DNA of 64,000 bases from an uncultured Candidatus Bathyarchaeia archaeon (GTDB lineage Archaea > Thermoproteota > Bathyarchaeia > Bathyarchaeales > Bathycorpusculaceae). The stretch is taken from positions 3,231 through 67,230 of the forward strand of contig CAZLCE010000006.1 in the NCBI GenBank assembly GCA_964558305.1, read 5' to 3'. The notes beneath the pieces were generated by a model. The model saw only the letters and a program-made list of their open reading frames with translations. It searched no databases and was not told the origin of the DNA. The translations under genes were made by a program, and so were the position numbers. This document shows positions 36,951-61,481 of the stretch, in pieces; position 1 is the stretch's first letter, and each line of letters starts with the position of its first letter.

Positions 36951-37949
36951 CTACTTTATTCTGTGGCATGCCACGTAATGTTCTTCTCCCACTTCGATAA
37001 GTTCTGGCTCTTCCTTTCTGCAAACTTCCTCGGCATTTGGGCATCTAGTGTGAAATCTACAGCCAGGAGGCGGATTTACAGGGCTTGGAATTTCTCCTTT
37101 AATTGTTAGTTTTATGCGTCGTGATTTTGGATCAGGTACAGGCACAGCAGATATGAGCGCTTTAGTGTAAGAGTGCAAGGGTTCATAAACAATATCCTCA
37201 GATGTTCCCATTTCCATTATTTTACCGAGGTACATTATGGCTATTCTATGGCACATGTGACGAGCCGTGGCTAGGTCATGAGTTATGTATAAAATCGAAA
37301 CGTTGAATTTCTCCACTAACTCTAAAAAGAGATTCAGTATTTCCGCTCTTATTGACACATCGAGCATTGATATTGGCTCGTCTGCAACTACGAATTCGGG
37401 ATTAAGTATGAAGGTTCTTGCTACGACAACTCTCTGTCTTTGTCCTCCGCTCAGCTCGTGGGGGTATCTGAGTAAAAATTCGTTTGGAGGAACTACCTTC
37501 ACGTCTTCAAGAGTTTTTATCACTCTTTCTTCTACTTCCTTCTCGCTGCTCAAAACCTTTTGAATGCGTAAGCCTTCTGCAATGATGTCCATGACGGTCT
37601 TTCTTGGGTTTAGGGATTCGTAAGGGTCTTGGAAAACTGTCTGCATTTTGCGCCGCAGTTGTTTCTGTTTCATTTGCTTTCTAGTGAGTTTAGTGATATC
37701 TTCGCCCTTGAAAAAAACTTTCCCACTTGTTGGGTCAATTATTTTAAGGACCAATCTTCCAGTGGTTGTCTTTCCGCTGCCACTTTCTCCAGCTAAACCA
37801 AAAATTTCTCTTGTTTTTATATCAAAGCTTACATCATCTACGGCTCGAACGAACGATTCTTTCTTTGAAAGTAAAGCTTGGAAAAAGCCTCTTCTAACGG
37901 GAAACCACTTTTTTAAGTTTAACACTTCTACTACTTTATTTTCAGACAT
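36951..37949 (-). CDS. oppF: Peptide/nickel (Opp/Dpp-type) ABC transporter ATP-binding protein
   Basis: 332 aa. Walker A GESGSGKTT, signature LSGGQRQR, Walker B VVADEP, and a C-terminal oligopeptide-transporter domain with PPPGCRFHTRCP. Confidence 0.9.
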   Translation of the reverse strand: MSENKVVEVLNLKKWFPVRRGFFQALLSKKESFVRAVDDVSFDIKTREIFGLAGESGSGKTTTGRLVLKIIDPTSGKVFFKGEDITKLTRKQMKQKQLRRKMQTVFQDPYESLNPRKTVMDIIAEGLRIQKVLSSEKEVEERVIKTLEDVKVVPPNEFLLRYPHELSGGQRQRVVVARTFILNPEFVVADEPISMLDVSIRAEILNLFLELVEKFNVSILYITHDLATARHMCHRIAIMYLGKIMEMGTSEDIVYEPLHSYTKALISAVPVPDPKSRRIKLTIKGEIPSPVNPPPGCRFHTRCPNAEEVCRKEEPELIEVGEEHYVACHRIK

Positions 37950-37969
37950 TTCGATTCTTCCATCTCAAA

Positions 37970-38971
37970 TCAACTATTCCCATACAAGTGGCATGCGACA
38001 AGATGCTCTTTTTCCTTCATCTTCGTTACAGCTGGCTCCTGTTCCTTGCAGATGGTTTTTGCGTAGGTGCATCTGGGATGGAATCTGCAACCTTTAGGCG
38101 GATCTAAGAGGTCTGGTGGAGACCCGGGGATCGAGTTCATTCGTGTTCTGGTTGATTTTATGTTTGGAAAAGCTTGAATTAACCCTTGCGTATAGGGATG
38201 CAGCGGTTCTTCAAATAAGTCTGAAACATCTGCGTATTCAACTATTTTTCCTGCATACATTATAGCAACTTTATCGCAAGTGTCAGCTATAATCGATAGG
38301 TCATGTGTTATCAAGATCACAGCCAAGTTCAGTTTTTTTCTCAAATCTTCCATTATACTTAGTACCTGAGCCTGAACAATAACGTCTAGTGCTGTTCCCG
38401 GTTCATCGGCGATTAAGAGTTCTGGATTACATGCTAAAGCCATTGCTATAAGCCCGCGTTGCCTCATGCCGCCGCTTAGCTCGTGAGGATAACTTTTTAT
38501 CCGTTTTCTTTCCATTCCTACTAATTCCAATAGTTCTTCGGCTCTGCTCGCGGCTTCTCTTCTGTTAAGTTTTGATTCATGAGCCAAAATAGCTTCTACG
38601 ATCTGATCTCCAAGGCTGTAAAGCGGGTCAAGCGCATTCATAGCGCCTTGAAACACTAAAGATATTTTCTTCCACCGAATTTTCCTCATCTCTTTTTCGG
38701 AAATTCTTGCAATGTCAAGGTCTTTTAAGAGGATCTTGCCGTCGGTTATTTTGCCTCGAGATGGAAGAATTTTCATGATAGATAACGCTACAGTAGTTTT
38801 GCCGCAGCCAGATTCACCTGCCAAACCCATGGCTTGTCCTTCTTTAACCTGAAAGTCGACGCCATCCACTGCTTTGACGGGGCCTCTTTTCGTGAAATAG
38901 TATGTTCTTAGGTTTTCGACGTTTAGAAGAGACATGTTCAAAAGTTGCCTTCTTGTAATGTATGTAAACAC
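37970..38971 (-). CDS. oppD: Peptide/nickel (Opp/Dpp-type) ABC transporter ATP-binding protein
   Basis: 333 aa. GESGCGKTT, LSGGMRQR, LIADEP, PKGCRFHPRC. The start may be the internal M (MSLLNVENL) at 38935. Confidence 0.9.
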   Translation of the reverse strand: MFTYITRRQLLNMSLLNVENLRTYYFTKRGPVKAVDGVDFQVKEGQAMGLAGESGCGKTTVALSIMKILPSRGKITDGKILLKDLDIARISEKEMRKIRWKKISLVFQGAMNALDPLYSLGDQIVEAILAHESKLNRREAASRAEELLELVGMERKRIKSYPHELSGGMRQRGLIAMALACNPELLIADEPGTALDVIVQAQVLSIMEDLRKKLNLAVILITHDLSIIADTCDKVAIMYAGKIVEYADVSDLFEEPLHPYTQGLIQAFPNIKSTRTRMNSIPGSPPDLLDPPKGCRFHPRCTYAKTICKEQEPAVTKMKEKEHLVACHLYGNS

Positions 38972-39073
38972 TTAGCTTGGGAGTTCATCCTTGATATAAA
39001 TCTTTTGAAAGACGTGAGGTATATTGTTTTGAAGAACCAATAAGGAATGCGTCAAAAAACGGTTAGATTAAAT

Positions 39074-40645
39074 TTAGATTCTTTCTCGAAGTTTTGGATT
39101 AAATACTTCATCCAAAGCATATCCGATGAAAATAAATGATATAGAAATGGCTGCTATGCATAAACCAGGCGGAAGGACCCACCACCATTTTTGAACGCCT
39201 CCGGGTGATATTAAAGCGTCATGAAGTATTCTTCCCCACGTCATGACTTCAAAGGGATAAAGTCCTAAAAAGCTTAGGTATGCCTCTGAATAAATTGCTG
39301 CGGGTGCTGACATGGCTAATGTAACATATACCAAATTCATAACATTTGGGGTTAGAACACTGAAGATGATGTAAAGCTCGCTTCCTCCAAGAATCCTTGA
39401 CGCATCGACAAAGGGTCTTTCCTTAAGGCTGAGAACCTGAGACCTCACTATTCTGGCGAACCCCATCCACCCGAGGAGAGAAATCATTACAATGATAATC
39501 CATAATGATGGCCCCGTGACTGCTACGAATACTAAGAGCAGGGGAAGCTCTGGTATTACAAGAAAGGTGTCAGTTATCCTCATCATTATTTCATCTATAA
39601 TTCCACCAAAATATCCTGAAACCATTCCGACGAACAAGCCTATAGTCGTGGATAGAAAGGCTCCGAGGAATCCCACAAGGAGGGATATTCTTGTTCCATA
39701 TAATAGCTGAGAAAATATGTCCCGTGCAAATTTGTCGGTTCCAAGTAGACCGAAGGTTTCGCCATAAAGTTTCAAGTCGAGGTCGTCTAAATAAACCGTG
39801 ACGTTCGATACATTTTCGCCAAACAGTGCTTCAACACCGAATGTGTAATTGGTCGGTTTAGAAAATACTTTTCTGTCTATATCCAAGATGTCAGAATCTA
39901 TAAGATTAAGATACCATGGTGGGGGGCCAGTCCTCATCGTTGGTTTGATCCATTTTCCAATGGGGTAGATTCCGCCTGTCGTTTTGAGGCCCTCAGCAGG
40001 GGACCATAGTGTTTTTGGTTCGCCCTCAGCCTGTTTGATGAAAACTGTAATGTTAAGGTCAGCTAGCTTAATAGTAATGTTTTGTGGGGCGTCAACCTTA
40101 ACATATATCTTTCCGACCCACTTGCTAGGCGGATTTGAATAGGGATAGGTGAATTCCTTAGCCAGAACCGCTTCTGCTTTCTCTTTTTGCGCAATTTCAT
40201 CTTGCCTTAAGCATATAGCAATGCAGCCTGGACCACTGCTGGGACTTCCCTCATTAGATAAATACTCTAGCGAAATGTATTGACTTGATGCGTTTGTTGT
40301 GAATCCCCACTGCTCCAACGAAACATTAGTCGAGAAGCTTGGGTCTTGAATAGGATTGACGTTTTCACTTAGATTTCCATAACCAGGCAGGTACCTAATC
40401 CATGAAGGGAGGGCGAGGGGACTAGCTGTTATTTCGGTAGGGATTGCTAAAGGGTCGTATGGCGTCAGCAAAGGCGCGGCAAGAGCTATTACAATGAATG
40501 CAGCAAGAATAGCGATGCCTAGTACTCCTCTTTTGCTTTGCATAATAATTCTTAAAACCTTGAGGAAATCTCTAAAGCGGGGTGCAATTTTTGATTTATA
40601 CGAAGCGGACATGGGTATCTCATCCATATTTAATTCGTGGATCAA
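39074..40645 (-). CDS. oppC: Opp/Dpp-type ABC transporter permease (OppC-like) with a large extracytoplasmic insertion after TM1
   Basis: 523 aa. It has TM1, then about 235 residues before the conserved LLGTDKFARDIFSQLLYGTRISL box, whereas I recall a much shorter segment in typical OppC/DppC. The start may be 40627 or 40612. Confidence 0.85.
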   Translation of the reverse strand: MIHELNMDEIPMSASYKSKIAPRFRDFLKVLRIIMQSKRGVLGIAILAAFIVIALAAPLLTPYDPLAIPTEITASPLALPSWIRYLPGYGNLSENVNPIQDPSFSTNVSLEQWGFTTNASSQYISLEYLSNEGSPSSGPGCIAICLRQDEIAQKEKAEAVLAKEFTYPYSNPPSKWVGKIYVKVDAPQNITIKLADLNITVFIKQAEGEPKTLWSPAEGLKTTGGIYPIGKWIKPTMRTGPPPWYLNLIDSDILDIDRKVFSKPTNYTFGVEALFGENVSNVTVYLDDLDLKLYGETFGLLGTDKFARDIFSQLLYGTRISLLVGFLGAFLSTTIGLFVGMVSGYFGGIIDEIMMRITDTFLVIPELPLLLVFVAVTGPSLWIIIVMISLLGWMGFARIVRSQVLSLKERPFVDASRILGGSELYIIFSVLTPNVMNLVYVTLAMSAPAAIYSEAYLSFLGLYPFEVMTWGRILHDALISPGGVQKWWWVLPPGLCIAAISISFIFIGYALDEVFNPKLRERI

Positions 40646-41624
40646 CAGCTCCGTAAATCATGTCAACTAAGAAATTGGCGGCAATGACGCAAAGACTCAC
40701 AATGTAAAAGATCGCTTGTAAAGCGGGGTAATCCCATTCTTCAATCGATGTCCAAATCCACATTCCTAATCCTGGATATGTGAAAATTGTTTCGGTGACT
40801 AACGCTCCTGAGAGGGTGAAGGCAAAGGCTATGGCTACTTGTGTTATTATTGGTAGCGACGCGTTTTTTAGTGCGTGTTTAAAAAGTATCTTAAAATTAC
40901 TTAGTCCTTTTGCTTTTAGGGTAATTAGATAGTCCTCACTTAAGACCTCCAGCATTGACGCCCTTGTCAAAAGAACATATCCTCCAATAGTGATTATTAC
41001 TAATGTCAAGGCTGGCAAGAAAAGATACTGCAAGCGAATCGCAAATTCTATTAGAAAATTATCGGGTTTGCCATGAATAGCCCACTCCGGGGGATATGAA
41101 TGACCTAATGGAAACCAGCCTAAGTTGTAGGAGAATATTAAGAGCAAAAGCATTCCTATCCAAAAAACCGGCAGTCCCTGCGTCACTACCGAAAACATTG
41201 AAAAAAAGGTGTCTGCAATTTTTCCTCTTTTGTAAGCCGCTACCACTCCAAGAATCAATCCCATTACAACAGCTATAACTTCTGCAGTGATGCACATTGA
41301 AAGGGTATTTGAAAGACGTGAAAACATTTCCTCGGATATAGCTTCTCCTGTGCGATAAGAATAACCAAACTGAAAAGTCAACAAATTCTGGAGATATTTC
41401 AAATATCTTACATATATCGGCTCCAATAGTCCAAAGCGTACTTTGAGTTCCTCAATTTGTCCAGGACGAAGTCTCTTTTCGGATGCTAACATTTCTACTG
41501 GGCTTCTAACCATAAAGATGGCGAAATTAATTGTAATTACAATAAAGACTAGGACGATGGAATAAACAGCTCTCTTAACAACATACCCTCGTAGACCCAT
41601 ACTTGCCCTCTCGCTTTTATTCAC
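40620..41624 (-). CDS. oppB: Opp/Dpp-type ABC transporter permease (OppB-like)
   Basis: 334 aa. YVVKRAVYSIVLVFIVITINF N-terminus, an EAA-like loop (LEVLSEDYLITLKAKGLS), and 6 TM segments. Confidence 0.9.
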   Translation of the reverse strand: MNKSERASMGLRGYVVKRAVYSIVLVFIVITINFAIFMVRSPVEMLASEKRLRPGQIEELKVRFGLLEPIYVRYLKYLQNLLTFQFGYSYRTGEAISEEMFSRLSNTLSMCITAEVIAVVMGLILGVVAAYKRGKIADTFFSMFSVVTQGLPVFWIGMLLLLIFSYNLGWFPLGHSYPPEWAIHGKPDNFLIEFAIRLQYLFLPALTLVIITIGGYVLLTRASMLEVLSEDYLITLKAKGLSNFKILFKHALKNASLPIITQVAIAFAFTLSGALVTETIFTYPGLGMWIWTSIEEWDYPALQAIFYIVSLCVIAANFLVDMIYGAVDPRIKYG

Positions 41625-41733
41625 GAGGCATTTATTTATGTTTTTTGCGTACGACGAAGTTCTCCATATAATTTATGATTCAAGTGCAAACATCAAAATT
41701 CTCTCTCTTAGCAGTGTAGAAGATATTTCCATA

Positions 41734-41743
41734 AAGTTTAAAT
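41734..41743 (+). promoter_or_regulatory. Putative TATA element AAGTTTAAAT upstream of the SBP-dockerin gene
   Basis: It lies about 46 nt before ATG 41789, with GAGAGGAGAG (SD-like) in between. It sits in the divergent oppB/oppA intergenic region. Confidence 0.35.
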
Positions 41744-41788
41744 CAACATTTAAAGCCTAGTGTAATAGCGAGAGGAGAGAGAATTAAA

Positions 41789-44074
41789 ATGGACATAAAT
41801 TCTAAAGGCTTCAAAAAGATGATAATGACCTCAGCATTGCTACTTCTGATGCTAGATTTAACTTTCGTTTCAGGTCAAGCTGGTGGAGGTTCTGGAGGAT
41901 ATGAAAAGTGGGGGCCAAGAACTAATTACTTACAGTGTATAATCTATACGAATTATGAGACTGAGGCTACGGCTTTTCGTAATGGGCTTATTGACATTAT
42001 GGATTGGCCTTTAGACTATGATACATATATGTCTATAAAAGATGATCCTGCCTTCATTAAAGAAACACTTACAATGTATGATTGCTATGACATCGATATA
42101 AACTGTTTAAGATGGCCAACAAGCGATTACCGCTTTAGACAAGCTATCGCTTATTTAATTGACTACTCAACGTTTTATACTAATATTTTGAGGGCTTTCG
42201 CTGGCGAGTTGATGGACAATATTATATGGTCGCAATGGGTCAAGTGGTATAATCCGGGTGCCCCGAAGTATTGGTATGATAATGCTACAGCCTTATCAAT
42301 ACTTGCTGAAGCAGGTTACCAAAATTGGGACGGCGATCCACAACTGGAATGGAAAGCGCCGAATAATACAATTTACCAATTGCCCAACTTGGAATTTTAT
42401 GCAAGAGAGGATGATCCTCTTCGAGCGGCTTTAGGAACGATGTTAAACGCACAGTTAAACGCTATAGGCATTCCCACAACTTTCTCAGTAGCATCACGTA
42501 ACATTTGTTGGAACCACGCATACAAATTTTATACCTATCACTTATATACAGCGGGAATGGGTCCATTCCCAGACCCGCAATTCTTGTATGACTACTATCA
42601 CAGTAAATATGCTACGCCAGACATCGCTTGGTGCATGAACAATGTGTTCTTCATGAACGATACTTACGATTATTGGGTTGAACAACTCAAGTTTGCAGCT
42701 AATGACACTACGGCAGTACAAGCATGCAAAAACGCTCAAGAAATATTTATGGACCAAATACCCCTAATCCCAGTTTACCATTCAGCCGGCAAAAAAGCTT
42801 ACAAAGCTACATATGGGCATCACACTGGTGAGGAGGCATACTGGGATATGCCTTGGAACGGCGTTGTAAACTCGATAATACCAACAGTAGATTCTGGCAT
42901 TAACGATTATTGGACCCTCTTGAATGCGCATCCTGGAAGCGTTCAGAAAGGCGGTGTATTACGATACGGATGGCTATCCGACGCAGATCATGTAAATCCC
43001 GTGACGGTATACTCTATCTGGGACTCTTACCTGCTGGAAGAGCTTTACAGCACAATGATTATGCGCGATCCTTTCACGGGAGCCAGAGTTCCATGGCTTG
43101 CAAAAGATTGGACTGTTGGAACATGGAATTATGGAGGAAAAAATGCAACAAAATTAACGATGCGCCTTCATGAAAACCTCAAATGGTCTGATGGTACACC
43201 ACTCAATTCAACTGACGTAGCATTCACCATGAAATACATGTATGATACTTCTTCACCTTCCTACTACCCCTACATGGAGATGATTGACGGCATAAATACA
43301 ACAACTCCACATATTGAAACGCCAGATGCCACCACAGTTGTCATCTACTATACTGTTGAATCAGTATGGGCTCTCGAATGGGCGGGAGATACACCAATAA
43401 TACCCAAGCATGTATGGGAAACAGTACCACCCAAACAATGCGACCAGAAAGGCGAATTTACAACGACAGGCAACCTAACATGCTCAGGACCATACCTAAT
43501 CGACAGTTACGTGAGAGGCGAATGGTGGCTCCTAAGAGCAAACCCCTACTTCTTTAGATATTCACCCCCACATGATCTATCCCTAACAGACATGGGAAGC
43601 CAAAAAACAATCGTTTGCCAAGGATACGGCTTAAACGTAACCTTGACCTGCGCAAATATCGGATACTTCACAGAATCAGCAACAATAGAAGTCTTTGCAA
43701 ACGGAACCTCTGCCGGCACTATGTCGGGAATAACAGTGACAACTGCAACACCATGTACAATAACGTTCACTTGGGACACTTCTGGCTTTGCTAAGGGCAA
43801 CTACAACATAAGCGCCCTTATTTGGCCTGTTCTAGGCGAAATAGACACTGCCGACAACAATTTCACTGATGTTTGGATTTCTGTCGCTATAGTTGGTGAT
43901 GTTAACGCTGATAAGAAGGTTGATATGGTAGACCTTTGGGAAGTTGCTAGGCATTTTGGCATTGACTATCCGGACCCAAGATACGTGCCCAACTTTGACA
44001 TAGACAACAACGGCAAAACAGACATGATAGACCTCTGGACAACAGCCAAAGAATACGGCAAAATAGACCCATAA
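41789..44074 (+). CDS. oppA: Family-5 (peptide/nickel) ABC substrate-binding protein fused to C-terminal CARDB-like and dockerin-like modules
   Basis: 761 aa. Signal/anchor MIMTSALLLLMLDLTFVSG. SBP_bac_5-like core about 550 aa. CARDB-like segment (NVTLTCANIGYF..FTWDTSGFAKGNYNISA..GEIDTADNNF). Two dockerin-type Ca-binding loops (DVNADKKVDMVD, DIDNNGKTDMID). Confidence 0.85.
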   Translation: MDINSKGFKKMIMTSALLLLMLDLTFVSGQAGGGSGGYEKWGPRTNYLQCIIYTNYETEATAFRNGLIDIMDWPLDYDTYMSIKDDPAFIKETLTMYDCYDIDINCLRWPTSDYRFRQAIAYLIDYSTFYTNILRAFAGELMDNIIWSQWVKWYNPGAPKYWYDNATALSILAEAGYQNWDGDPQLEWKAPNNTIYQLPNLEFYAREDDPLRAALGTMLNAQLNAIGIPTTFSVASRNICWNHAYKFYTYHLYTAGMGPFPDPQFLYDYYHSKYATPDIAWCMNNVFFMNDTYDYWVEQLKFAANDTTAVQACKNAQEIFMDQIPLIPVYHSAGKKAYKATYGHHTGEEAYWDMPWNGVVNSIIPTVDSGINDYWTLLNAHPGSVQKGGVLRYGWLSDADHVNPVTVYSIWDSYLLEELYSTMIMRDPFTGARVPWLAKDWTVGTWNYGGKNATKLTMRLHENLKWSDGTPLNSTDVAFTMKYMYDTSSPSYYPYMEMIDGINTTTPHIETPDATTVVIYYTVESVWALEWAGDTPIIPKHVWETVPPKQCDQKGEFTTTGNLTCSGPYLIDSYVRGEWWLLRANPYFFRYSPPHDLSLTDMGSQKTIVCQGYGLNVTLTCANIGYFTESATIEVFANGTSAGTMSGITVTTATPCTITFTWDTSGFAKGNYNISALIWPVLGEIDTADNNFTDVWISVAIVGDVNADKKVDMVDLWEVARHFGIDYPDPRYVPNFDIDNNGKTDMIDLWTTAKEYGKIDP

Positions 44075-44086
44075 ACCCACCTTTTT
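43873..44086 (+). repeat. 214-bp perfect direct repeat, copy 1 (dockerin coding sequence + stop + oligo-T)
   Basis: By base-by-base comparison it is identical to 61273-61486 (offset exactly 17,400 bp). The 102 bp upstream (43771-43872 vs 61171-61272) show 18 mismatches and no indels. Confidence 0.95.
43895..44071 (+). other. Dockerin-like module (two EF-hand-like 12-residue loops, each followed by a helix)
   Basis: GDVNADKKVDMVDLWEVARHFG..FDIDNNGKTDMIDLWTTAKEYG matches the dockerin type I repeat consensus D-x-N/D-x-D/N-G/K-x-(V/I/T)-D-x-x-D. Confidence 0.75.
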
Positions 44087-44087
44087 T
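44082..44087 (+). terminator. Oligo-T tract (T6) 8 nt after the stop codon; putative archaeal terminator
   Basis: TAAACCCACCTTTTTTC directly after the CDS. Archaeal RNA polymerase terminates at oligo-T runs. Confidence 0.35.
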
Positions 44088-44329
44088 CTGCGTAAGCGGG
44101 AATTATATTTTCGAAGTCACCTTTGTCCAGACTGCTATACCAGAAGGACGAAGAGCTAACTATTAGTAAGGATATTGGGAGATATAGCATTCTATGTAAT
44201 TCTTTTTATATTCTTCTCGGTCTCTAAAGAATCAGTCTGAAATCAATTGTTACTTACAACAACTTTTAAATGAAGGTCTATCTTATTTTGCGTAAGCATC
44301 CGCTTACATGTTGCTAGGAGATTAGAAGC

Positions 44330-44656
44330 TTGGAAATAAGTCGAAAGAAACTGCGAGAAGAGGTTCTTGAAAGAATCAAATACGTCAAAACATGCGTTTT
44401 GGCTAGAGAAATCTGCCTGCTTGTTCGTACGAACAGGGCTGTTCTAGACCCGAAAGATGTGCAGGAAATATGCTTGTCCATATCTAAACTTTGCAAAGAA
44501 GAAGGCTGTCAAGAAGCAAGCGACATATGTCAAAAAGCTACAGAAGCAATAGGCTCTGGAGACGAAGCCAAATACCTTGATTTATGCGCCCAGAGTTGTA
44601 TGAAATGTGGAGAAGCTAGAAGACCAACACCTAAAAAATCCACATATGTAGCCTAA
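44330..44656 (+). CDS. Cysteine-rich helical protein (possibly a DUF326-like four-helix-bundle metal-binding protein)
   Basis: 108 aa with a TTG start. Has 10 Cys in spaced pairs (CQEASDIC, CAQSCMKC). Both the gene call and the function are tentative. Confidence 0.4.
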   Translation: MEISRKKLREEVLERIKYVKTCVLAREICLLVRTNRAVLDPKDVQEICLSISKLCKEEGCQEASDICQKATEAIGSGDEAKYLDLCAQSCMKCGEARRPTPKKSTYVA

Positions 44657-44785
44657 AATGTAGAAAATCTTTAAAAGAACAAGATTATTGGTTAAGTCAA
44701 TTAGGTAATAAGTTTACTTTAAACGGGGGCTCATGAACTGTTCATCGCACCTTACGTTCCAAGTCCACCGCAAGTAATACGTCAA

Positions 44786-45214
44786 ATGCTAATCCTAGCT
44801 GAATTGAAACCAAGAGAAGTTTTCTTTGATCTGGGCGCTGGAGACGGCAGAGCGGTAATGATGGCTGCAAAAGATTTTGGTGCAAGAGCAGTAGGCGTAG
44901 AATTAAGGGAAGACCTTGTAAAAAAGGCGTTAGGCTCCGTCTATGAGCAAGGACTGCAAGACAGAGTAACAATAGTGAACGGCGATATGTTTTCTGTTGA
45001 CTTAAGCTCGGCTGACGTGGTTTTTCTGTACTTGACAACTAGTGCAAACGAAAAGATCAAGCCCAAACTTGAGACTGAACTTAAAAATGGAGTGCGCGTC
45101 GTTTCCCATGATTATGAAATTGTCGGGTGGAAACCTGTTAAGGTTGATAATTTCTGCGAAAACCAGACATTGGGATATCCTTCGCATACGATTTATTTAT
45201 ACAAGAAAGTTTAG
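44786..45214 (+). CDS. Class I SAM-dependent methyltransferase (small, single domain)
   Basis: SAM motif I VFFDLGAGDGR and motif II-like ADVVFLY. The conserved N-terminal PYVPSPPQVIRQ segment lies in frame upstream of the ATG (open from 44723) with no canonical start codon. Confidence 0.75.
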   Translation: MLILAELKPREVFFDLGAGDGRAVMMAAKDFGARAVGVELREDLVKKALGSVYEQGLQDRVTIVNGDMFSVDLSSADVVFLYLTTSANEKIKPKLETELKNGVRVVSHDYEIVGWKPVKVDNFCENQTLGYPSHTIYLYKKV

Positions 45215-45262
45215 CCTTCAACTAGCGAAAGTATTCTGCAAATAGTTTTTATAGGTTAGATA

Positions 45263-45823
45263 TTGTTTTTTGATTTTTTTAGAGTGACGAAAATGCAGTT
45301 TATTCCATGGCGGTACATTGCAGACTGGAAATGCATTGCATGTGGTGCCTGTTGCAGACTTTACAGCGTAGTCTTGAATTTCCCTGAATGGTTTAGAATC
45401 ATCAAAAACTACGGAGTTGAACAAACGGTTTCGGGCTTGGACAAGCTATATATAAAAAGAAACACAGACGGCTCTTGTGCTTTTCTCTGTCAATTTTCAA
45501 ACATGTACCTGTGCGGACTGCAACAAATGAAGCCTAAAGCATGCAAACTTTGGCCCTTCAAAATTATCACTAGACCGGAATTTGGAAACGCAAATCGTGC
45601 AGTGTACAATTACGGCGGAAATACCTTCTTTGTTTATGCAGATTCCATGTGCAGCGGTATTAGGTATGGAAACCCCTCATGGGAATTTACCAATCGCACT
45701 CTTAAAGAGTTCATTGAAATTGCTCTGGGAGCGCGCATCGAACAGTATAAGACCACCGGAGAAATAGCTTTTCCTTCAACATATACTCTGCATAGGCGTT
45801 TTAGCGTGTATCAGAGAGTTTGA
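45263..45823 (+). CDS. YkgJ-family (UPF0153) cysteine-cluster protein
   Basis: 186 aa with the CIACGACC (CxxCGxCC) signature plus downstream Cys residues. The start may be M at 45293. Confidence 0.7.
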   Translation: MFFDFFRVTKMQFIPWRYIADWKCIACGACCRLYSVVLNFPEWFRIIKNYGVEQTVSGLDKLYIKRNTDGSCAFLCQFSNMYLCGLQQMKPKACKLWPFKIITRPEFGNANRAVYNYGGNTFFVYADSMCSGIRYGNPSWEFTNRTLKEFIEIALGARIEQYKTTGEIAFPSTYTLHRRFSVYQRV

Positions 45824-46027
45824 ACGGGGAATCTTCCATACTGCAACTCATGTAACTTAATATTTTGGTATTTGTAAACTTCAGCAATGTCGTTTAAGGA
45901 GGCTTTAATATCGCGTGCTTTGAAAATTTCGTTCCATCTTTTTCTTCAACTATGGTTTTTCCAAGTTCAAACATATAGCTTGACAGACTACAAAATTTTA
46001 CGCTTTAATGTGTTAACAAGAAATTTT

Positions 46028-46501
46028 TTAACGTGGTTTTTTGTGAGTTATAGTTTTTTCTTCTTCTAGCTCTTTGACACGTGTCTCGATGAACTCGGTG
46101 ACTTTCTCTTGGCAGTATTCCCTTTCTTCATTCTGCTTTCTCAGTTGTTCTCTGATTGTTTTTAGGATCATGTCCACGTTAAAGGGCTTCATTATGTAGG
46201 CATCTGCACCCTTATTTAGGGCTTCAATTGCGTTTTGCAATGAAGGATAGCCGGTGACCATTATTTTTCGCATTTTAGGCGTTGTGTCTCTTATTTTTGT
46301 TAGAAGTTTTGTTCCGTCCATGTCTGGAAGCCGAATGTCTATTAATGCTACATTGTATAATCTGATTTTGCTTTTTTCGATTGCTTGTTTTCCATTTTTC
46401 GCAGTGTCAACATCAAATCCTTCTTCTTTCAGTATTGTTGCAAGAACTTTTCTTATGCTTTCGTCGTCGTCGACAACAAGGATTCGGGCACGTTCACCCA
46501 T
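46028..46501 (-). CDS. CheY-like response regulator, receiver domain only
   Basis: 157 aa. ILVVDDDE, phospho-acceptor LIDIRLPDMDG, and VTGY..K motifs. No output domain. Confidence 0.9.
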   Translation of the reverse strand: MGERARILVVDDDESIRKVLATILKEEGFDVDTAKNGKQAIEKSKIRLYNVALIDIRLPDMDGTKLLTKIRDTTPKMRKIMVTGYPSLQNAIEALNKGADAYIMKPFNVDMILKTIREQLRKQNEEREYCQEKVTEFIETRVKELEEEKTITHKKPR

Positions 46502-48531
46502 ACTTTTTCACCTCCTTCTTTTACTTTAGGTCTTATGGGGATGACTAGCGTGAATGTGGTTCCTTTGCCAACGGTGCTTTCAACGGAGATGTTGCCTCCG
46601 TGGGCTTCTATGATGCGTTTGCAGATGGGCAGGCCTAACCCCATTCCCTTTGCTTTGGTTGTGAAAAATGGTGTCCAGATTTTCTCCATAACTTCTTTTG
46701 TCATACCTATTCCTGTATCAGCAAATGTGATTTCTACATTGCCGTCAGATTCTTTGCTCGTAATTGTAAGTTTGCCACCATTGGGCATCGCGTCAACTGC
46801 GTTTTTAATTAAGTTGGCAAATACTCTTTTCATCTTTTCAAAGTCTATCTTTACTTTAGGTTCGTCTTGTGTTGAGTCCAGCACTTGAACATAATCTGGA
46901 ATCTCAACCATGGATAGTGTTTCTTTTACAATTAATTTTGGGGTAGTTTCAGTCAACTCTAGCCGTATTTCTTTCGAGTATTCCATTAGATCCTTTATGA
47001 TTTCGTTTGCGTGTTCAACGTCATTTTCAATAAGCTCAAGCATTTCTTTGGTTTTCTCATCCATTTTTGGGCTCAGTTTCGTTTTTAGGTAATATGTGGC
47101 TCCTGAAATGCCTGTTAATGGGTTTCGCAGGTCATGGCCTACCATTGCTGCAACTTGTCCGATGGCTGCAAGTCTTTCAGATTTGATAAGTTGTTCTTGT
47201 GCTACTCTTAACTGTCTAGTTCTTTTCTCAACCATTTCCTCTAGGTGCTGAGAATACTCCTCCAGTTTCTTCTCCAACTTCTTCCTTTCTGTAACGTCTC
47301 TCGCAACGACTAATATACCAACGAGTTTATCATCTATTTTTATAATTGAGGATGAACATTCTAAATAAATCTCTTGGCCTTTCTTGTTTGTAATGCGTAA
47401 GCTGGTATAGCCTTCTTTGCCGCTAATGATTCTTGCAAAATTACTCAGAAGCTTTGGTATGTCTCTGAGAGAAAATACCCCCGCCTTTATGAAATGCTTT
47501 CCTAATAGTTCTTCTTTTGATCCACCAAACACCTGCACGGCTTTTTCATTAACATCAATGATTCTTCCAGACCTATCCAAATATATTAGGCTGTCATTTG
47601 CACTCTCAAAAATTTTCCTAAATCTCTCCTCGCTCTCTTGAAGCGCTTCTTCCATCCTCTTGCGCTCAGTGACATCCATAACAATGGCTAGAGCGCCAGT
47701 AAATTGCCCGTCTTTATTCCCAAGAGGTGATGCTGACACTTGAACAATGCGAGGCTTGCCATCCTTGCCATACATGACAAGTTCGTATCGGCCTAATTTT
47801 CCTCTTTTTCTGTTCTCTGTCTGCCTTCTGATTTCCTTGAAGTTTTTTTCGTCGACAAGTTTTCGCAAGTTAACGTGTATAAGTTCATTTTCCTTGTAAC
47901 CCAACATGTCAGCAAATGCTTTGTTTACAAAAGTCAGATTATCATTTGAATCCACTATTGTTATTCCTTCCATAGCTGTCTTCAGCAACATCTCAAGTTT
48001 TCTGTTAGTTTCTTCCAATATTTTTTCCATCGACACACGTTCTGTAATGTCGCGTACAATTCCAAGGGTTCCAACAGTTTTTCCATTAATAATTAACGGT
48101 CTAGAAGTTACTTCAGTTAAAACTATTTTGTTGGTAGCTGTTTTTAGCTCCAATTCAAGTCTAATTTCCTTTCCTCTAATCACGTCCAGAAAACCCTTAA
48201 CTGCCTTGGGCAAGCTTTTGAGGGGAATAATTTTTCTGAAAGATTTTCCAATGAAATGTTCGCGTTTAAAACCTGTCAGTTCTTCTGCTTTGCGGTTAAC
48301 AGCCAAAAAGTTTCCATGCATGTCAAGAACGTAAATCGCATCGCTGGCATTTTCAAATAAACATTTGAAAGCGTCAGCAAAAGATCTGTTTAAAGAAAAA
48401 AACTCGACTAACCTTTCATCGGCATTTTCCAAAATTAAGTCAGCTCCCTTCTGTTCTCTAATGTGAGTCCTCTTGAACCATGATTGAGCAATGATGATTC
48501 CTCTAAAGCATATTCCAAGAAACACTTTCAA
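46453..48531 (-). CDS. Multi-PAS sensor histidine kinase
   Basis: 692 aa with about four PAS repeats (each ending ..DITERK/V..). HisKA H-box VGHDLRNPL. HATPase N-box NLIKNAVDA and G-boxes DTGIGM and GMGLGL. No clear TM segments. Its 3' end overlaps the response-regulator start by 49 nt. Confidence 0.9.
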   Translation of the reverse strand: MKVFLGICFRGIIIAQSWFKRTHIREQKGADLILENADERLVEFFSLNRSFADAFKCLFENASDAIYVLDMHGNFLAVNRKAEELTGFKREHFIGKSFRKIIPLKSLPKAVKGFLDVIRGKEIRLELELKTATNKIVLTEVTSRPLIINGKTVGTLGIVRDITERVSMEKILEETNRKLEMLLKTAMEGITIVDSNDNLTFVNKAFADMLGYKENELIHVNLRKLVDEKNFKEIRRQTENRKRGKLGRYELVMYGKDGKPRIVQVSASPLGNKDGQFTGALAIVMDVTERKRMEEALQESEERFRKIFESANDSLIYLDRSGRIIDVNEKAVQVFGGSKEELLGKHFIKAGVFSLRDIPKLLSNFARIISGKEGYTSLRITNKKGQEIYLECSSSIIKIDDKLVGILVVARDVTERKKLEKKLEEYSQHLEEMVEKRTRQLRVAQEQLIKSERLAAIGQVAAMVGHDLRNPLTGISGATYYLKTKLSPKMDEKTKEMLELIENDVEHANEIIKDLMEYSKEIRLELTETTPKLIVKETLSMVEIPDYVQVLDSTQDEPKVKIDFEKMKRVFANLIKNAVDAMPNGGKLTITSKESDGNVEITFADTGIGMTKEVMEKIWTPFFTTKAKGMGLGLPICKRIIEAHGGNISVESTVGKGTTFTLVIPIRPKVKEGGEKVWVNVPESLLSTTTKA

Positions 48532-48727
48532 GAAACGGTTTATAAATCGCTTATGAAATGTAGATGTGAATTTTTATGATTGCTGCCTCCAAACGAAAAT
48601 CCGAGTCAGAATAATCCACCATCAGTTTTGTTTAACAAAGGAAATTTTCATTTGTTCAACAAATCAGGTTATAAGCCAGAATTTAGAAAGGATAAAGTTC
48701 ATGTTCATGCATCGCTGGGATTAGCCT

Positions 48728-49510
48728 ATGGATAAGCCTGAAATCGGTTTGTCTATGCTTTACTGTTTAGGCGAACCTTTCAAGAACATCACCGAGCGCC
48801 TTATCAACGCAGAAACAGCTTACATAGAAATTATTGACGATGGGTTTCACGCATTAAACAAGCAGAGAGTTTCAATTCTGAAAAACATAGGAAGATCATA
48901 TGATTTAAAATACTCTGTGCATGCGCCATTTGCAGACATAAACATTGCTTCACCGTCAAAGCCAATTTTGAAAGCAGTGCTCAAAAGACTTGAAAAATCA
49001 ATCACATACACAAATGATTTAGACGCGTATATGTGGGTTTTTCATCCAGGATTAAAAACTGGCATCAGCATGTTTTACCCAGGCATGGACCTGCTTCAAA
49101 ACCTAAAAACCGCACGCTTACTGTTCAAAATTGCAAATGATCACAGTGTAAAAATAGCCATAGAAAACGTGCCAGAACCATACCCTTTTTTAATGAAAAG
49201 CGTTGAAGATTTTACAAAATTTTATAGTGAATTTAACGAAAACATGAATTTGGTTTTGGACATTGGACATGCAAACATTAACGGACAGACTGAACGTTTT
49301 CTGACCACTTTTGCAGACAAGATCGCGCATATTCATGCACACGACAATGATGGGAAAGATGATCAGCATTTGGGCATAGGCTACGGCACAGTTGACTGGA
49401 AGAACATTGCTAACCTGCTGAAAAAAATATCTTACAACAAAGTAATAGTCATCGAATCTGTTGAGCACATCAAAGAAAGCGTACAGAGGGCAAAACAGTT
49501 ATTCACCTAA
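48728..49510 (+). CDS. Xylose-isomerase-like TIM-barrel protein (sugar phosphate isomerase/epimerase or AP-endonuclease-2 family)
   Basis: 260 aa. YSVHAPF, IAIEN, LDIGHAN, HIHAHDN metal-ligand pattern. Confidence 0.8.
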   Translation: MDKPEIGLSMLYCLGEPFKNITERLINAETAYIEIIDDGFHALNKQRVSILKNIGRSYDLKYSVHAPFADINIASPSKPILKAVLKRLEKSITYTNDLDAYMWVFHPGLKTGISMFYPGMDLLQNLKTARLLFKIANDHSVKIAIENVPEPYPFLMKSVEDFTKFYSEFNENMNLVLDIGHANINGQTERFLTTFADKIAHIHAHDNDGKDDQHLGIGYGTVDWKNIANLLKKISYNKVIVIESVEHIKESVQRAKQLFT

Positions 49511-49518
49511 TATATTTC

Positions 49519-50442
49519 CTATTTACTGCGAAGCGGAATCTCTATTTTCATGAAGTCCTCTGCCACTTGCGTGTTTTTGAAAATTTTTCGTGCCTGCTTC
49601 AAAAGTGTGCTAGTGTCGTCATATCTTGCACTAACATGCGTGAGAATCAGCCTTTTCACTTTCGCCTTCTTGGCGTTTTCAGCCGCTTGTCTTGGAGTCG
49701 AATGCCCGTCCTCTTCTGCTCTTTCACTCAGCTCCTCATCCAAAGTGGCGTCATGAACGAGCAAGTCTGCATCAACCGCAAACTCCACAAAGCCCTTAAA
49801 CGGTCTCGTGTCGCCCGTATAAACAATCTTTCTTCCTGGCCTAGGAGATCCTGTAACATCCTCGGGCTTTACGACGCGACCTTTTGGGAGCTTAATCTTA
49901 TGTCCATGCTGAAGTTTTGACCATAAGGGACCTTCTGGAACACCTAAGGCTTTGGCTTTTTCTGGATAAAACTTTCCTGGACGTGGCTTTTCTACAAATG
50001 CATATGCTAAGCTTGGGATCACATGATTTGCCCAAACTGCTTGAACAATGTACTCTTCTTCTTCGCAGATAACGCCGGCATTTTCAATTTCGTGAATTTC
50101 AACTGGAAAGGTTAAGACAAACTGAACCGTTTCCCTAATACCTTCTATGAAACGATTCATTCCCGGCGGTCCGTAAACCTCAAGCTTCTTTTCCCTGTCC
50201 AGCAGAGCCATGGTTTGCAGTAGCCCTGGCAGGCCTAGAACATGGTCGCCATGCATGTGCGAGATAAAAACTTTCATTTTTCTATGGAAACCAGTTTTAG
50301 CCTTTATCATTTGCCTCTGTACGCCTTCGCCGCAATCGAACATTATTTGCTCGCCTTTGCGATGGATAAGTATGGCTGGCAAGCTTCTTTTTGTCGTTGG
50401 AACACTTCCAGCCGTGCCTAGGAAAGTTACACGAAGGCTCAT
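49519..50442 (-). CDS. rnz: Ribonuclease Z (tRNA 3' endonuclease)
   Basis: 307 aa. LGTAGSVP, FDCGEG, SHMHGDHVLGLPGLL (HxHxDH), C-terminal LTHVSARY. Confidence 0.9.
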   Translation of the reverse strand: MSLRVTFLGTAGSVPTTKRSLPAILIHRKGEQIMFDCGEGVQRQMIKAKTGFHRKMKVFISHMHGDHVLGLPGLLQTMALLDREKKLEVYGPPGMNRFIEGIRETVQFVLTFPVEIHEIENAGVICEEEEYIVQAVWANHVIPSLAYAFVEKPRPGKFYPEKAKALGVPEGPLWSKLQHGHKIKLPKGRVVKPEDVTGSPRPGRKIVYTGDTRPFKGFVEFAVDADLLVHDATLDEELSERAEEDGHSTPRQAAENAKKAKVKRLILTHVSARYDDTSTLLKQARKIFKNTQVAEDFMKIEIPLRSK

Positions 50443-50448
50443 ATGGTT

Positions 50449-51486
50449 CTACACCTTTTCAAACACAGCTATTTCTCTTGTTAGGCTTCGGTGAACATAA
50501 ACAAAATGGGACTCTATATGTTTATAACCTAAAACTGTGCCTATGCGTCCGACGCTTAATGTTTTCGGTGCAGCCATGCAGATTCTCTGTCCTTCACCGA
50601 GCATGTCACGAACAGCCATTAAAACTTCTTCAACTATCTGCTTCGTAGTTCGCTTCAAAGTCGTTGCAGATCTACCATAAGGCGGATCAGCCACGACGCA
50701 ATCAACCCTAGTTATTGGTGGGTTTCGCGCATCCGCAACCACGACCCCTTCAGGCTTAATGTTAAAATAAGTGAAGTTTCTGAGGCTTCCCCTTATCATG
50801 CGCCGCTGAACATCCAAGCCTAAGACACGACAGCCAATAAGCGAAGCCTCGATAAGTATGCTTCCAGTTCCGCAGAAGGGATCAAAAACCAATTCGCCAG
50901 CTTTAGTTTTGGCTAAGTTAACCATGCACCTTGAAAGTTTCGCTGGCATAGCCGACGGATGGAAAAACGGCTTTTTCCTTGGGCGTCTCTCAACAAAAGG
51001 TTTAGGCGGAATCTCTGCAAGCTTTACGCCAAAAATAAGCTTTTCACTTGTTAAGATGCCCATGAAAACTTTATTTGGATTTTTCAAGTTCACCTTTGCC
51101 TTTTTTGTCTCGTTTATTATTAATTCGCCCAATTTTCTCTCCAGAACCATTCCATCGATTTTTGAAGCATAACTCTTTACACGCTTTACGCGAACCGCAA
51201 AGCTCTCACCGTCTTTTAGAAATTCTTTTAGGTTCATAGAGCGCATTTCTCTCACTATCTTGGACGTTTCTGCTTCGCAATTGAACAGTTCTAACCCGCA
51301 AAGTCTTGTGAATGCTGCTCTGCGTTTTATGGCTTCTATGCAGTTTAATTCTGCTTCAAGCCTTAACGCTTGGTCAAGTTTCTCCAACGTTTTAAAGGCG
51401 TAGCCTTCTGCTTCAAGTATAGTCTTCAATTCAGAGACTGGTAAAGTTTCATGTTCACCAGAGAGCAGAAAGAAAATTTTAGCCAC
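50449..51486 (-). CDS. THUMP-domain tRNA (guanine(10)-N2)-methyltransferase (Trm-G10/Trm11-like)
   Basis: 345 aa. N-terminal THUMP-like region, SAM motif I DPFCGTGSILIEA, and catalytic VADPPYG. Confidence 0.8.
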   Translation of the reverse strand: MAKIFFLLSGEHETLPVSELKTILEAEGYAFKTLEKLDQALRLEAELNCIEAIKRRAAFTRLCGLELFNCEAETSKIVREMRSMNLKEFLKDGESFAVRVKRVKSYASKIDGMVLERKLGELIINETKKAKVNLKNPNKVFMGILTSEKLIFGVKLAEIPPKPFVERRPRKKPFFHPSAMPAKLSRCMVNLAKTKAGELVFDPFCGTGSILIEASLIGCRVLGLDVQRRMIRGSLRNFTYFNIKPEGVVVADARNPPITRVDCVVADPPYGRSATTLKRTTKQIVEEVLMAVRDMLGEGQRICMAAPKTLSVGRIGTVLGYKHIESHFVYVHRSLTREIAVFEKV

Positions 51487-52363
51487 TTTTACGCTCCTTT
51501 AATGTCTTACTTATTAATGGTGCGAGGGAAACTTTGCTCACATGACTTTCAACGCTGTCAGTGCCTACAATTTCTTTCACTCCAGCCTCTATTATGCGCT
51601 TTTCTGCGTCTCCGATTAGAAGCGGATGAACGCAAGCAGCATACATCTTTTCAGCTTGAAGTTCCTTCAGAACTTTAGCTGCAGCAACTATTGTGCCACC
51701 AGTGCTAATTATGTCATCAAAAATTATCACAGTTTTTCCCTTTGCATCAAATGTTTTTCTTTCAACGCTCACCTGTCCAGTGTAGCGGTCTCGATGCTTC
51801 TCCAAATAGCCACATTCTCCACCCAAAACTGTCTTCGCTTCTTCAACAATGTGCATCGCGCCTTTGTCTGGCGCAAGCGCAAAAGCCTTCTCAAAACCTT
51901 TCTTTTTAAAATACTCAGCAAGCAACGGAATTGCAGAGACTGTCTTTGCCGGAAATGAAAACTCCATTAACACTTTTTCTTGATGCACATTCACGGTTAT
52001 TAAGTCATTAATCCCAGCAGCCTTCAGCATACGTGCAATTGCTTGAATGCTTATGGCTTCGCCTTGCAGAAAAGCCTTGTCTTGGCGTGCATAAGCCAGA
52101 TAGGGCACGACTGCCGTTACTTTTTTGGCTTTGTTTCTTTTTGCTGCATCTGCAATCAAAGCTAATTGTATAAGCCTAGTGTCCTGCGGCGGGCTTGTGG
52201 TCTGTATAATGACTGCTTCTTCATTTTTCACTTTGCCTTCTAACCGTACGTATGATTCTCCATCTGGAAAATTTTTGAAAGCTACTGGCACTGTTTCCGC
52301 ATTTAGAAGTTCAGCCACTTTTTCGCCTAGCTGTTTAGAGGCTGGTCCAAGAACTATTTTCAT
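51479..52363 (-). CDS. prs: Ribose-phosphate pyrophosphokinase
   Basis: 294 aa. FPDGESYVRL, and the PRPP-binding loop VIIFDDIISTGGT. Confidence 0.9.
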   Translation of the reverse strand: MKIVLGPASKQLGEKVAELLNAETVPVAFKNFPDGESYVRLEGKVKNEEAVIIQTTSPPQDTRLIQLALIADAAKRNKAKKVTAVVPYLAYARQDKAFLQGEAISIQAIARMLKAAGINDLITVNVHQEKVLMEFSFPAKTVSAIPLLAEYFKKKGFEKAFALAPDKGAMHIVEEAKTVLGGECGYLEKHRDRYTGQVSVERKTFDAKGKTVIIFDDIISTGGTIVAAAKVLKELQAEKMYAACVHPLLIGDAEKRIIEAGVKEIVGTDSVESHVSKVSLAPLISKTLKERKSG

Positions 52364-52393
52364 CCTAGTTTTCCCACGTTTAAATTCAACCTA

Positions 52394-53677: not shown

Positions 53678-53867
53678 TTACTTTTCACCACAAGAGTCTA
53701 ATTATTAAATGGTAAAACATAAAAATGCTTCTAGAATTTGCGATTTTAAACGAGTCCACGTATTACGAATGAAAAAATATTTTTCGTTTCACACATAAAG
53801 ATAATTGATACATTTCAATACTTGCATCTAGAAAATCGAAAATAGAATAAAAAAGGGAAAAGGAAGA

Positions 53868-54392: not shown

Positions 54393-54393
54393 C

Positions 54394-55098: not shown

Positions 55099-55246
55099 CT
55101 TCGTATCGCACTCGCAATGTCTGGTTTCTTTTTATTTAAGTCGTATGAATTCGGAATCGTAATCCGAATTCTACATATGTTAAGGAGAGAATTAGAGATA
55201 AATCTTCTGTCGTAATATACGATACACACAATTCTACAAGAATAGA

Positions 55247-56257: not shown

Positions 56258-56260
56258 CGT

Positions 56261-58586: not shown

Positions 58587-58762
58587 TCGTCCTTTTATGT
58601 TATGTCTAAATGTATTCTTTTGTATTTTGGGTTTTAACGGTTTGCCTTTGAAAAAGGGTTGAATGTTTTGGTGTTGCTATGATTAACTTATATGGTCGTA
58701 TAGAAGATTTATCCGTAAGATTTATGTTTTGATTGAACTATTTTAGATCAGGAGAAAGAAAA

Positions 58763-61474: not shown

Positions 61475-61481
61475 ACCCACC

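Follow-up and report, generated by a model that had tools for sequence, protein, structure and literature searches.

Concerted evolution by gene conversion is known in prokaryotes from the duplicated tuf genes and from the pilE/pilS, opa and vlsE cassette systems. That paralogous segments undergo gene conversion is well known, as is the modularity of dockerins, and the locus described here involves no new type of mechanism. Cohesin-dockerin systems are known from bacterial cellulosomes and, in non-cellulosomal form, from archaea such as Archaeoglobus and the anaerobic methanotrophic (ANME) archaea; like the locus described here, they carry a C-terminal type-I dockerin, which has two calcium-binding loops of 12 residues, on several cargo proteins of a single organism. 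ANME archaea are also reported to have binding proteins of the OppA/NikA type that carry dockerins (PMC9012536). Here we analyze a stretch of 64,000 nucleotides, which we call the window, from an uncultured Candidatus Bathyarchaeia archaeon (assembly GCA_964558305.1, contig CAZLCE010000006.1, positions 3,231 to 67,230), in which two genes, one for an OppA-like binding protein (gene A) and one for a PLC-like/Kelch protein (gene B), end in a dockerin-encoding block that is identical base for base. We consider it roughly 70% probable that a discrete 3′ cassette was recently homogenized between the two genes by homologous recombination, that is, by gene conversion. New are the combination of gene conversion and modular dockerins in an archaeal lineage, the terminator within the unit and the swapping of anchors among orthologs. 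Also new is a related contig, 90% identical over the opp operon and gene A, in which gene A is followed by the gene that comes after gene B in the window, with a relic of the cassette between them. Our literature search returned nothing relevant on dockerin gene conversion, on concerted evolution of dockerins or on a cohesin-dockerin system in Bathyarchaeia.

The locus resembles the gene-conversion systems in its sharply bounded perfect tract between dispersed paralogs, within which synonymous sites are homogenized as well, and related contigs add a three-copy mosaic (L029) and promoterless orphan copies (L092, L029 and L001; in the labels of this analysis, L-numbers are related contigs or loci and P-numbers are related proteins). 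It differs from those systems in that the tract consists of one domain plus a terminator at the 3′ end of otherwise unrelated genes. Unlike in the antigen cassette systems, the effect is to homogenize a probable anchoring module instead of diversifying an antigen and, unlike in the programmed cassette systems, there is no sign of programmed conversion or of orphans acting as donors. From known cohesin-dockerin systems the locus departs in that the dockerin follows a CARDB-like domain and would move as one DNA unit together with the stop codon and the terminator. From cellulosomes it departs in its cargo: instead of on carbohydrate-active enzymes, the dockerins sit on a transporter binding protein and on a PLC-like/Kelch protein here, and on peptidases, beta-helix proteins and propeller proteins in relatives.

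Direct comparison of the two gene ends bore out the 214-bp identity that an earlier interpretation of this DNA, made from the letters alone (hereafter the sequence-only reading), had claimed. At an offset of 17,400 bp, positions 43873-44086 (copy 1) and 61273-61486 (copy 2), both on the forward strand, agree at 214 of 214 bases. Comparison of the window with itself, which that reading had proposed, was made with a repeat finder and self-BLASTN and gave a single direct pair, 43763-44086 against 61163-61486 (324 bp, ungapped, 93.8% identity), with no inverted repeats and no third copy within the window, and a protein-level search of the window found no further copy of the cassette. All 20 mismatches in the 324-bp stretch lie inside its first 110 bp (43763-43872 against 61163-61272, 82% identity), and 18 of the 20 fall within the 102 bp directly before the block (43771-43872), exactly as had been counted. 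Outside the homologous stretch, 5′ of about 43760 and 3′ of 44086, ungapped identity is 25-35%, which is the random level. The probability that 20 of 20 mismatches would fall within the first 110 of 324 positions is 1.2e-10, and the maximum chi-square method places the breakpoint at 43872 with a value reached in 0 of 20,000 permutations (p<5e-5). A comparison of silent sites between cassette and CARDB flank, also suggested by the sequence-only reading, shows the same step: third codon positions differ at 8 of 36 sites 5′ of the block edge and at 0 of 68 inside it (Fisher p = 1.2e-4). The identity step at 43872 is not due to chance.

How large is the contrast across this step? The diverged flank encodes the C-terminal strands of the CARDB-like domain and differs between the copies by 5 synonymous and 10 non-synonymous codon changes. 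Compared over the same segment with the cassette of another organism, L092, the flanks of gene A and gene B are 72-73% identical, which suggests that the 82% mostly represents family-level conservation of the CARDB motif and that the true contrast is between about 75-82% and 100%. An older conversion event behind the 82% flank was considered and is weakly supported (codons for the same residue are shared between A and B in 23 of 28 cases, versus 16 of 23 with the foreign cassette). On the other side of the block, 3′ of 44086, the copies have no similarity, so the identical tract stops where the shared sequence stops, with the 110 bp at 82% confined to the 5′ side.

The block itself has a simple layout. 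In copy 1 it holds the last CARDB-like strand (WISVAIV), continues with the dockerin from GD at 43895 to the last codon at 44071, and closes with TAA (44072-44074) and 12 non-coding bases, ACCCACCTTTTT, that contain an oligo-T tract; the content of copy 2 is the same. Both proteins match Dockerin_1 (PF00404) above its cutoff of 22.9 bits, gene A with 32.6 and gene B with 31.2. Two calcium-binding loops with their helices can be read from the translation, DVNADKKVDMVD-LWEVARHFG and DIDNNGKTDMID-LWTTAKEYG, which are the two tandem segments of about 22 residues that define a type-I dockerin, each with a 12-residue loop (D/N at 1, 3, 5, 9 and 12) and a helix.

Gene A (41789..44074, + strand) encodes 761 amino acids which, as judged from Pfam matches, the translation and orthologs, comprise a signal peptide, an OppA-like SBP_bac_5 domain, a CARDB-like domain and the dockerin. 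The N-terminus is hydrophobic in the translation, the SBP_bac_5 domain (E = 2.4e-45 in Pfam) ends at the motif LLRANPYFFR (43529-43558), and the CARDB-like domain (43571-43894) has only a weak Big_7 match in Pfam. Divergently transcribed from gene A are oppF, oppD, oppC and oppB-like ABC transporter genes (36951..41624, − strand; ABC_tran plus oligo_HPY twice and BPD_transp_1 twice in Pfam), a layout that is the same in L093 and L096. Gene A thus has the SBP_bac_5 domain, the adjacent permease and ATPase genes and the export signal of an Opp/Dpp-type binding protein, and we assign it, from these predicted features, as the binding protein of the neighboring Opp transporter.

Gene B (58763..61474, + strand) encodes 903 amino acids from its ATG, in an open reading frame (ORF) that opens at 58733. 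A signal or transmembrane (TM) segment, a PLC-like Zn_dep_PLPC N-terminal domain and a middle region precede the N-half of a CARDB domain (60017-60154), a Kelch propeller (60155-61108), the CARDB C-half (61109-61294) and the dockerin (61295-61471). The 318-residue propeller sits between two strands of the CARDB domain: when the halves are spliced together they score 26.0 bits against the PF07705 cutoff of 22.7, whereas the C-half alone scores 14.2 and the N-half has no CARDB match. CARDB is matched by 30 of 59 homologous cassette proteins. The sequence-only reading had regarded the remainder of the two proteins as unrelated, and this needs correction in that gene B also holds the CARDB N-half. 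Its statement that similarity decays further upstream is accurate insofar as identity drops to the random level there, but the cause is that the Kelch insertion splits the CARDB domain of gene B.

Other proteins share parts of the architecture of gene B. Its Kelch-in-CARDB arrangement is also found in proteins of about 517 residues in relatives (P0012 and P0014-P0018), and P0013 and P0030, considered as positional orthologs of gene B because they are among its best hits, stand in other contexts and are paralogs, though the contig of P0030 yielded the L100 case described below. The N-terminal Zn_dep_PLPC domain (58763-59550, about 260 residues) is 63-84% identical to the N-termini of more than 100 Bathyarchaeia proteins (P0019-P0130), the remainder of which is wholly different and includes M14 carboxypeptidase, NosD/beta-helix, C39 peptidase and cohesin plus dockerin regions; from these alignments the PLC-like domain appears to behave as a second, N-terminal shared module.

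Does the cassette share the history of the genes that carry it? Almost all relatives of the cassette and of either gene belong to metagenome-assembled genomes (MAGs) of Bathyarchaeia or to sediment metagenomes, and every match from scans of GTDB and metagenomes was to a relative, with an identity of at most 55%. In the binding-protein domain, gene A and its orthologs share about 72% identity and in the dockerin just 32-42%, as against 100% between the dockerins of gene A and gene B, so that the histories of tract and flank are incongruent. Across these comparisons the dockerin appears to track the genome and not the gene. All gene A orthologs share the end motif LLRANPYFFR and switch directly after it, to a CARDB domain with a dockerin, to a dockerin without CARDB, to a C-terminal TM anchor (P0143), or, in the closest ortholog (P0134, 84% identical over its aligned region), to a duplicated GDLGSGPPPTFFAFDGVVDAFDYALWKACYDG module. 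At the DNA level, the homology of the L096 ortholog to the window runs from 33205 to 43878, ending at the 5′ edge of the block, which indicates that the junction used between lineages coincides with the block edge inside this genome. Among 59 proteins of related loci that carry the cassette, the domains that stand before the tail are PKD, NosD/beta-helix, PQQ-type propeller, SBP_bac_5, subtilase and cohesin.

What divergence of this dockerin looks like can be seen in the L092 orphan ORF (P0001), the most similar cassette of a different organism. It keeps 51 of the 63 dockerin residues and has changed the codons of 22 of these 51, with a nucleotide identity of 77% to the block, and therefore nothing prevents this dockerin from varying at synonymous sites. 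Elsewhere, paralogous dockerins differ throughout, as in the L020 pair, which is 87% identical at the nucleotide level.

The module that replaces the dockerin in the closest gene A ortholog is an observation in its own right. It is a duplicated unit of about 32 C-terminal residues (GDLG-x-G-PPP-x-F-F/Y ... DG..D..D..L....CY.G, twice) that we found at L093 11786-12016, L083 2720-2947 and L071 1990-2217, and it takes the dockerin position both in P0134 and in the L083 gene that stands where gene B stands in the window. The precomputed Pfam domains of P0134 include no dockerin match for it, nor does the L083 protein have one at E<=0.01, and from its position it may be an undescribed docking or anchoring module.

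A perfect block with diverged flanks is not peculiar to this window. In L100, a 114-kb contig from another sample, positions 12178-12417 equal 18056-18295 in a perfect 240-bp block shared by two genes 5.9 kb apart, one for an 801-residue PLC-like/M14 peptidase protein and one for a 937-residue protein; it contains the end of CARDB, a dockerin of a different type, TAA and 11 further bases, and it is flanked on the 5′ side by about 240 bp at 76% identity, with random sequence beyond. L029 has three cassettes. Identity between copies 1 and 2 is about 97%, and their perfect runs span roughly 150-220 bp; copy 3 agrees with copy 1 in patches only, a mosaic pattern. Lesser versions of the stepped pattern occur in L020, L017, L066 and L012. 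Median dockerin amino acid identity is 54% within loci versus 35% between loci (p = 4e-12). From case to case the 5′ edges of the blocks vary, and at the 3′ end every block stops shortly after the stop codon, where shared sequence ends; because the 5′ edges vary, the ends of homologous-recombination tracts fit better than a site-specific system. The best-supported view is that homogenization would be a recurring process among neighboring surface-protein genes of Bathyarchaeia. This recurrence, together with the frozen silent sites and the decoupled history of the cassette, supports the proposal of the sequence-only reading that the step to 100% identity signals recent gene conversion or module exchange, and its mention of frequent recombination gains support from the stepped pattern in independent Bathyarchaeia contigs.

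Orphan cassettes were a further observation in these contigs. CARDB-dockerin ORFs of 131-156 residues, with no signal peptide and no upstream gene body, lie at L092 1513-1908, L029 6700-7170 and L001 9878-10333. The L092 and L001 orphans have an upstream neighbor on the opposite strand, and in L029 the orphan shares about 97% DNA identity with the end of a 675-residue gene that lies 5 kb from it. Such ORFs could have been left behind by rearrangements or could be silent donors. Small CARDB plus dockerin proteins of 129-177 residues in databases were considered as a free-standing family, and most look like fragments that start within CARDB; the three ORFs above are the genuine orphans.

Gene order in relatives bears on how the two copies came to lie where they do. 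Over 36951-43564, a segment that contains the opp operon and encodes the binding domain of gene A, L093, L094 and L095 (from JGI samples 3300035660, 3300035179 and 3300035688) share 90% identity with the window, but their gene A (A′) is followed by a homolog of the LigT-like gene at 61590-62159 (79% nucleotide identity) and not by the sequence downstream of copy 1. Window positions 43565-61588 have no counterpart at this site, where L093 has 567 bp of its own (11780-12346) that encode a C-terminal module unlike that of gene A and then run through an intergenic region. In this region, ahead of the LigT homolog, lies a relic of the cassette (L093 12020-12346, also present in L094 and L095), a truncated CARDB end with one dockerin repeat that ends in KTDP, a stop codon and its own oligo-T; its match to cassettes has E = 4e-9. 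The contigs L093 and L094 both break off at one position within the LigT homolog and L095 ends about 95 bp earlier, which points to a branch in the assembly graph or to a structural polymorphism. Both gene A orthologs with a readable context are followed by genes other than those from 44087 onward, and in L096 synteny breaks directly 3′ of gene A. On the far side, synteny also breaks 5′ of opp, where the window has a BKACE gene (36089-36928) and L093 has a thiolase gene, a zf-ChsH2 gene and two CoA-transferase genes (1642-5165). The opp operon with gene A is, as these alignments indicate, an island of 90% identity between less similar or non-syntenic flanks. Around gene B, the independent contig L083 has the order PF01877 protein, AAA_17 kinase, M14-CARDB protein, LigT and CCA enzyme, which is the window order, and the right-hand side of the window (the end of the interval, gene B, the block and LigT) is thereby corroborated.

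Our preferred explanation, the recent conversion of a 3′ cassette, would run as follows. The cassette would consist of the last CARDB strand, the type-I dockerin, the stop codon and an oligo-T archaeal terminator, and would serve as an exchangeable 3′ gene end. Both genes would have had a CARDB-dockerin tail beforehand, and a recent homologous recombination event, most simply a non-reciprocal gene conversion, would have overwritten one tail with the other in a tract from inside the CARDB/dockerin junction (43873) to the end of shared sequence past the terminator (44086), erasing all differences, including those at synonymous and non-coding sites. We infer conversion rather than a first acquisition of the tail because the CARDB C-half is 82% identical between the genes and because gene B keeps the CARDB N-half. 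In keeping with this, the window encodes RadA, the archaeal recombinase (5404-6420). Dockerin cassettes also appear to serve as crossover points in chromosomal rearrangement.

Several observations weigh against this explanation. Consensus formation or bubble collapse of two near-identical copies could overstate the perfect identity. Just two copies are visible, within the scope of the window. Because there is no homology 3′ of 44086, the end of the tract there fits conversion and, equally, crossover or rearrangement. Homologs of the genes just 3′ of the junction 44086|44087 were found in none of the related loci fetched, so that no relative corroborates this junction, and gene A in L093 adjoins the gene that follows gene B in the window. 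Lastly, the window ORFs that were scanned include no cohesin gene.

Could the identity, then, be the work of the assembler? An artefact would arise if similar tails had been merged to one consensus, or if at least three copies existed and a wrong path had been taken, such that gene A does not truly precede 44087. The sequence-only reading warned of such a hazard for MAG assembly, and the concern is legitimate and is backed by the comparison with relatives: the 214-bp block exceeds common k-mer lengths and the source appears to be metagenomic, L093-L095 place the homolog of 61590-62159 after A′, the genes just 3′ of 44087 are not seen at the related loci fetched or after the two orthologs with readable context, and all three relative contigs stop inside the LigT homolog, hinting at a branch in the graph. 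We nevertheless consider this explanation unlikely. Each copy runs in frame from its own diverged CARDB region into its own unique 3′ flank, and junction reads for all four edges must therefore exist. If there are just two copies, X-R-Y-R-Z is the sole linear path, and L083 independently confirms the order of AAA_17 kinase, B-position gene, LigT and CCA enzyme. Bubble collapse would require near-identity in any case, so the step from 82% would survive it, and the same pattern is present in two other assemblies from other samples.

A by-product of rearrangement is distinctly unlikely as well. Here a reciprocal crossover between cassettes would have moved the interval and gene B next to gene A, or excised them in the relative, and left identical repeats behind. 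The absence of a counterpart of 43565-61588 at the L093 site, the relic between A′ and the LigT homolog, the loss of synteny directly 3′ of gene A in L096, and orphan cassettes with no 5′ gene body (L092, L029 and L001), which indicate breakpoints within cassettes, all accord with it. Yet a crossover gives identical repeats only from parents that are already identical, so that homogenization would still be needed, and the interval, with its housekeeping genes and normal composition, does not look like an inserted island. Moreover, L093 is itself a mosaic relative to the window, 90% identical over opp and gene A and 79% over LigT with a further indel upstream of opp, and for this reason the direction of the 18-kb difference cannot be inferred. 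The sequence-only reading had seen the repeat as a substrate for deletion or inversion of the interval. The idea of deletion fits the gene order and relic of L093, but a plain deletion between direct repeats should be lethal because genes that are essential, HMG-CoA reductase and PRPP synthetase among them, lie between the repeats, and a relative of the L093 type must then keep these genes elsewhere. Inversion is excluded by the orientation of the copies, which are direct repeats, and a crossover between them deletes or excises and never inverts.

Very unlikely, in our estimation, is a recent first-time acquisition, in which one gene gained its dockerin tail lately by domain shuffling or illegitimate recombination and the identity simply marks a young duplication. 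C-terminal modules have clearly been swapped between orthologs, and gene B, which has no full-length ortholog, looks like a recent mosaic of modules. However, the 110 bp at 82% identity upstream of the block and the CARDB N-half of gene B imply that both recipients were already of the CARDB-dockerin type, and relatives of the Kelch-in-CARDB module of gene B carry CARDB, with at least one (P0018) also carrying a dockerin. That the dockerins owe their identity solely to purifying selection, be it on protein sequence, on codon usage or on the structure of the mRNA, is scarcely credible even though dockerins must keep their calcium-binding and cohesin-contacting residues and the same partner is probably needed, because there are 0 differences at 68 third positions and 12 non-coding bases, because the foreign L092 cassette, with 81% of its residues identical (51/63), alters 22 conserved codons, and because paralogous dockerins elsewhere, such as those of L020, vary at many synonymous sites.

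If a 3′ cassette was indeed converted, what does the cassette do? By analogy with known dockerins it would anchor its protein at the cell surface by docking to a partner that bears a cohesin, and the identical dockerins would send the gene A and gene B proteins to the same cohesin partner. Of the 59 proteins of relatives that carry the cassette, 5 have a cohesin domain (PF00963), and the domain is also present in many proteins that combine PLC-like, cohesin and dockerin regions. An anchoring role is suggested because the ortholog P0143 has a TM anchor where gene A has the cassette, and because relatives have cohesin-bearing proteins and fusions of binding proteins with dockerins are reported in ANME archaea; the gene A cassette would thus tether the Opp binding protein at the cell surface, the role that the TM anchor would have in P0143. 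In holding the anchor position after LLRANPYFFR, the cassette is like the interchangeable C-terminal anchors of archaeal and Gram-positive binding proteins. Unlike with TM or lipobox anchors, attachment would be non-covalent, via a partner protein, and, unlike with the usual C-terminal anchors, the anchor type switches between closely related gene A orthologs. Selection for identical docking specificity, as the sequence-only reading proposed, is plausible. We also considered a cellulosome and rejected it: there is no scaffoldin in the window, and the 25 most frequent of the 56 Pfam families in the 59 cassette-bearing proteins include no glycoside hydrolases. The arrangement would work instead like cohesin-dockerin display.

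The interval between the blocks (44087..61272, which includes most of gene B) begins with genes for a methyltransferase, a CxxCxxCC protein, a response regulator, a PAS histidine kinase, a TIM-barrel protein, an RNase Z-like protein and a THUMP methyltransferase. It continues with PRPP synthetase, HMG-CoA reductase (52394-53677), two unknowns, an MBL/RMMBL protein and an M20 peptidase, and ends with a PF01877 RNA-binding protein and an AAA_17 kinase before gene B. Downstream of copy 2 lie the LigT-like phosphoesterase gene (61590..62159, + strand) and then the gene for the CCA-adding enzyme (62169..63599, + strand). GC content and composition are even across the window, the interval included, and none of the window ORFs scanned with Pfam matched an integrase, a transposase or a reverse transcriptase. 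The rest of the window encodes TBP, an Lhr helicase and MttB/RACo/MtrH methyl-transfer proteins, and by its gene content the window is ordinary chromosome.

Other candidate agents were considered and set aside. A mobile element or island between the repeats does not agree with the housekeeping genes, the even composition and the lack of an integrase or transposase match. A diversity-generating retroelement is contradicted by mismatches of all kinds, which are not adenine-specific, and by the absence of a reverse transcriptase among the scanned ORFs. Viral carriage was rejected after a protein-pattern scan and an exact DNA scan of viral contigs, neither of which found the cassette. A structured RNA in the block was rejected since the only Rfam match in the window lies elsewhere. 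That match is to PYLIS_3, the pyrrolysine insertion element of mttB (54.7 bits, 32013-32114, − strand), and falls inside an MttB-family ORF (31621-33072) of 483 codons with no in-frame stop; adjoining this ORF are a second MttB homolog (28285-29730), a RACo activase, a B12-binding protein and MtrH.

A wider claim can be built on the conversion of this cassette, namely that Bathyarchaeia maintain a genome-wide economy of anchor cassettes, in which CARDB-dockerin-terminator units would be portable 3′ ends copied among unrelated surface-protein genes, orphans would be silent donors or leftovers, and the cassettes would drive rearrangements, the altered gene order 3′ of gene A in L093 being one instance. 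As a whole we think this improbable. Candidate donors or leftovers under such a scheme are L092, L029 6700-7170, L001 9878-10333 and the L093 relic. If it were true, then which protein docks to which cohesin would be re-programmed by recombination and not by point mutation.

We conclude that an archaeal dockerin is seen here, at base-pair resolution, as an evolutionary unit separate from the protein it anchors, one that would be copied between genes within a genome and replaced between orthologs. Phylogenies or orthology calls based on the dockerins of these proteins would consequently mislead, and identical cassettes of 200-250 bp are a hazard for short-read MAG assembly and for the inference of synteny, while they may also be natural breakpoints of genome rearrangement. 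The exchange of a TM anchor for several types of dockerin in orthologs suggests a testable model of how archaeal transporter binding proteins are tethered. Finally, DNA identity between cassettes could reveal which proteins have a common docking partner and so provide a handle on the organization of the bathyarchaeial cell surface.

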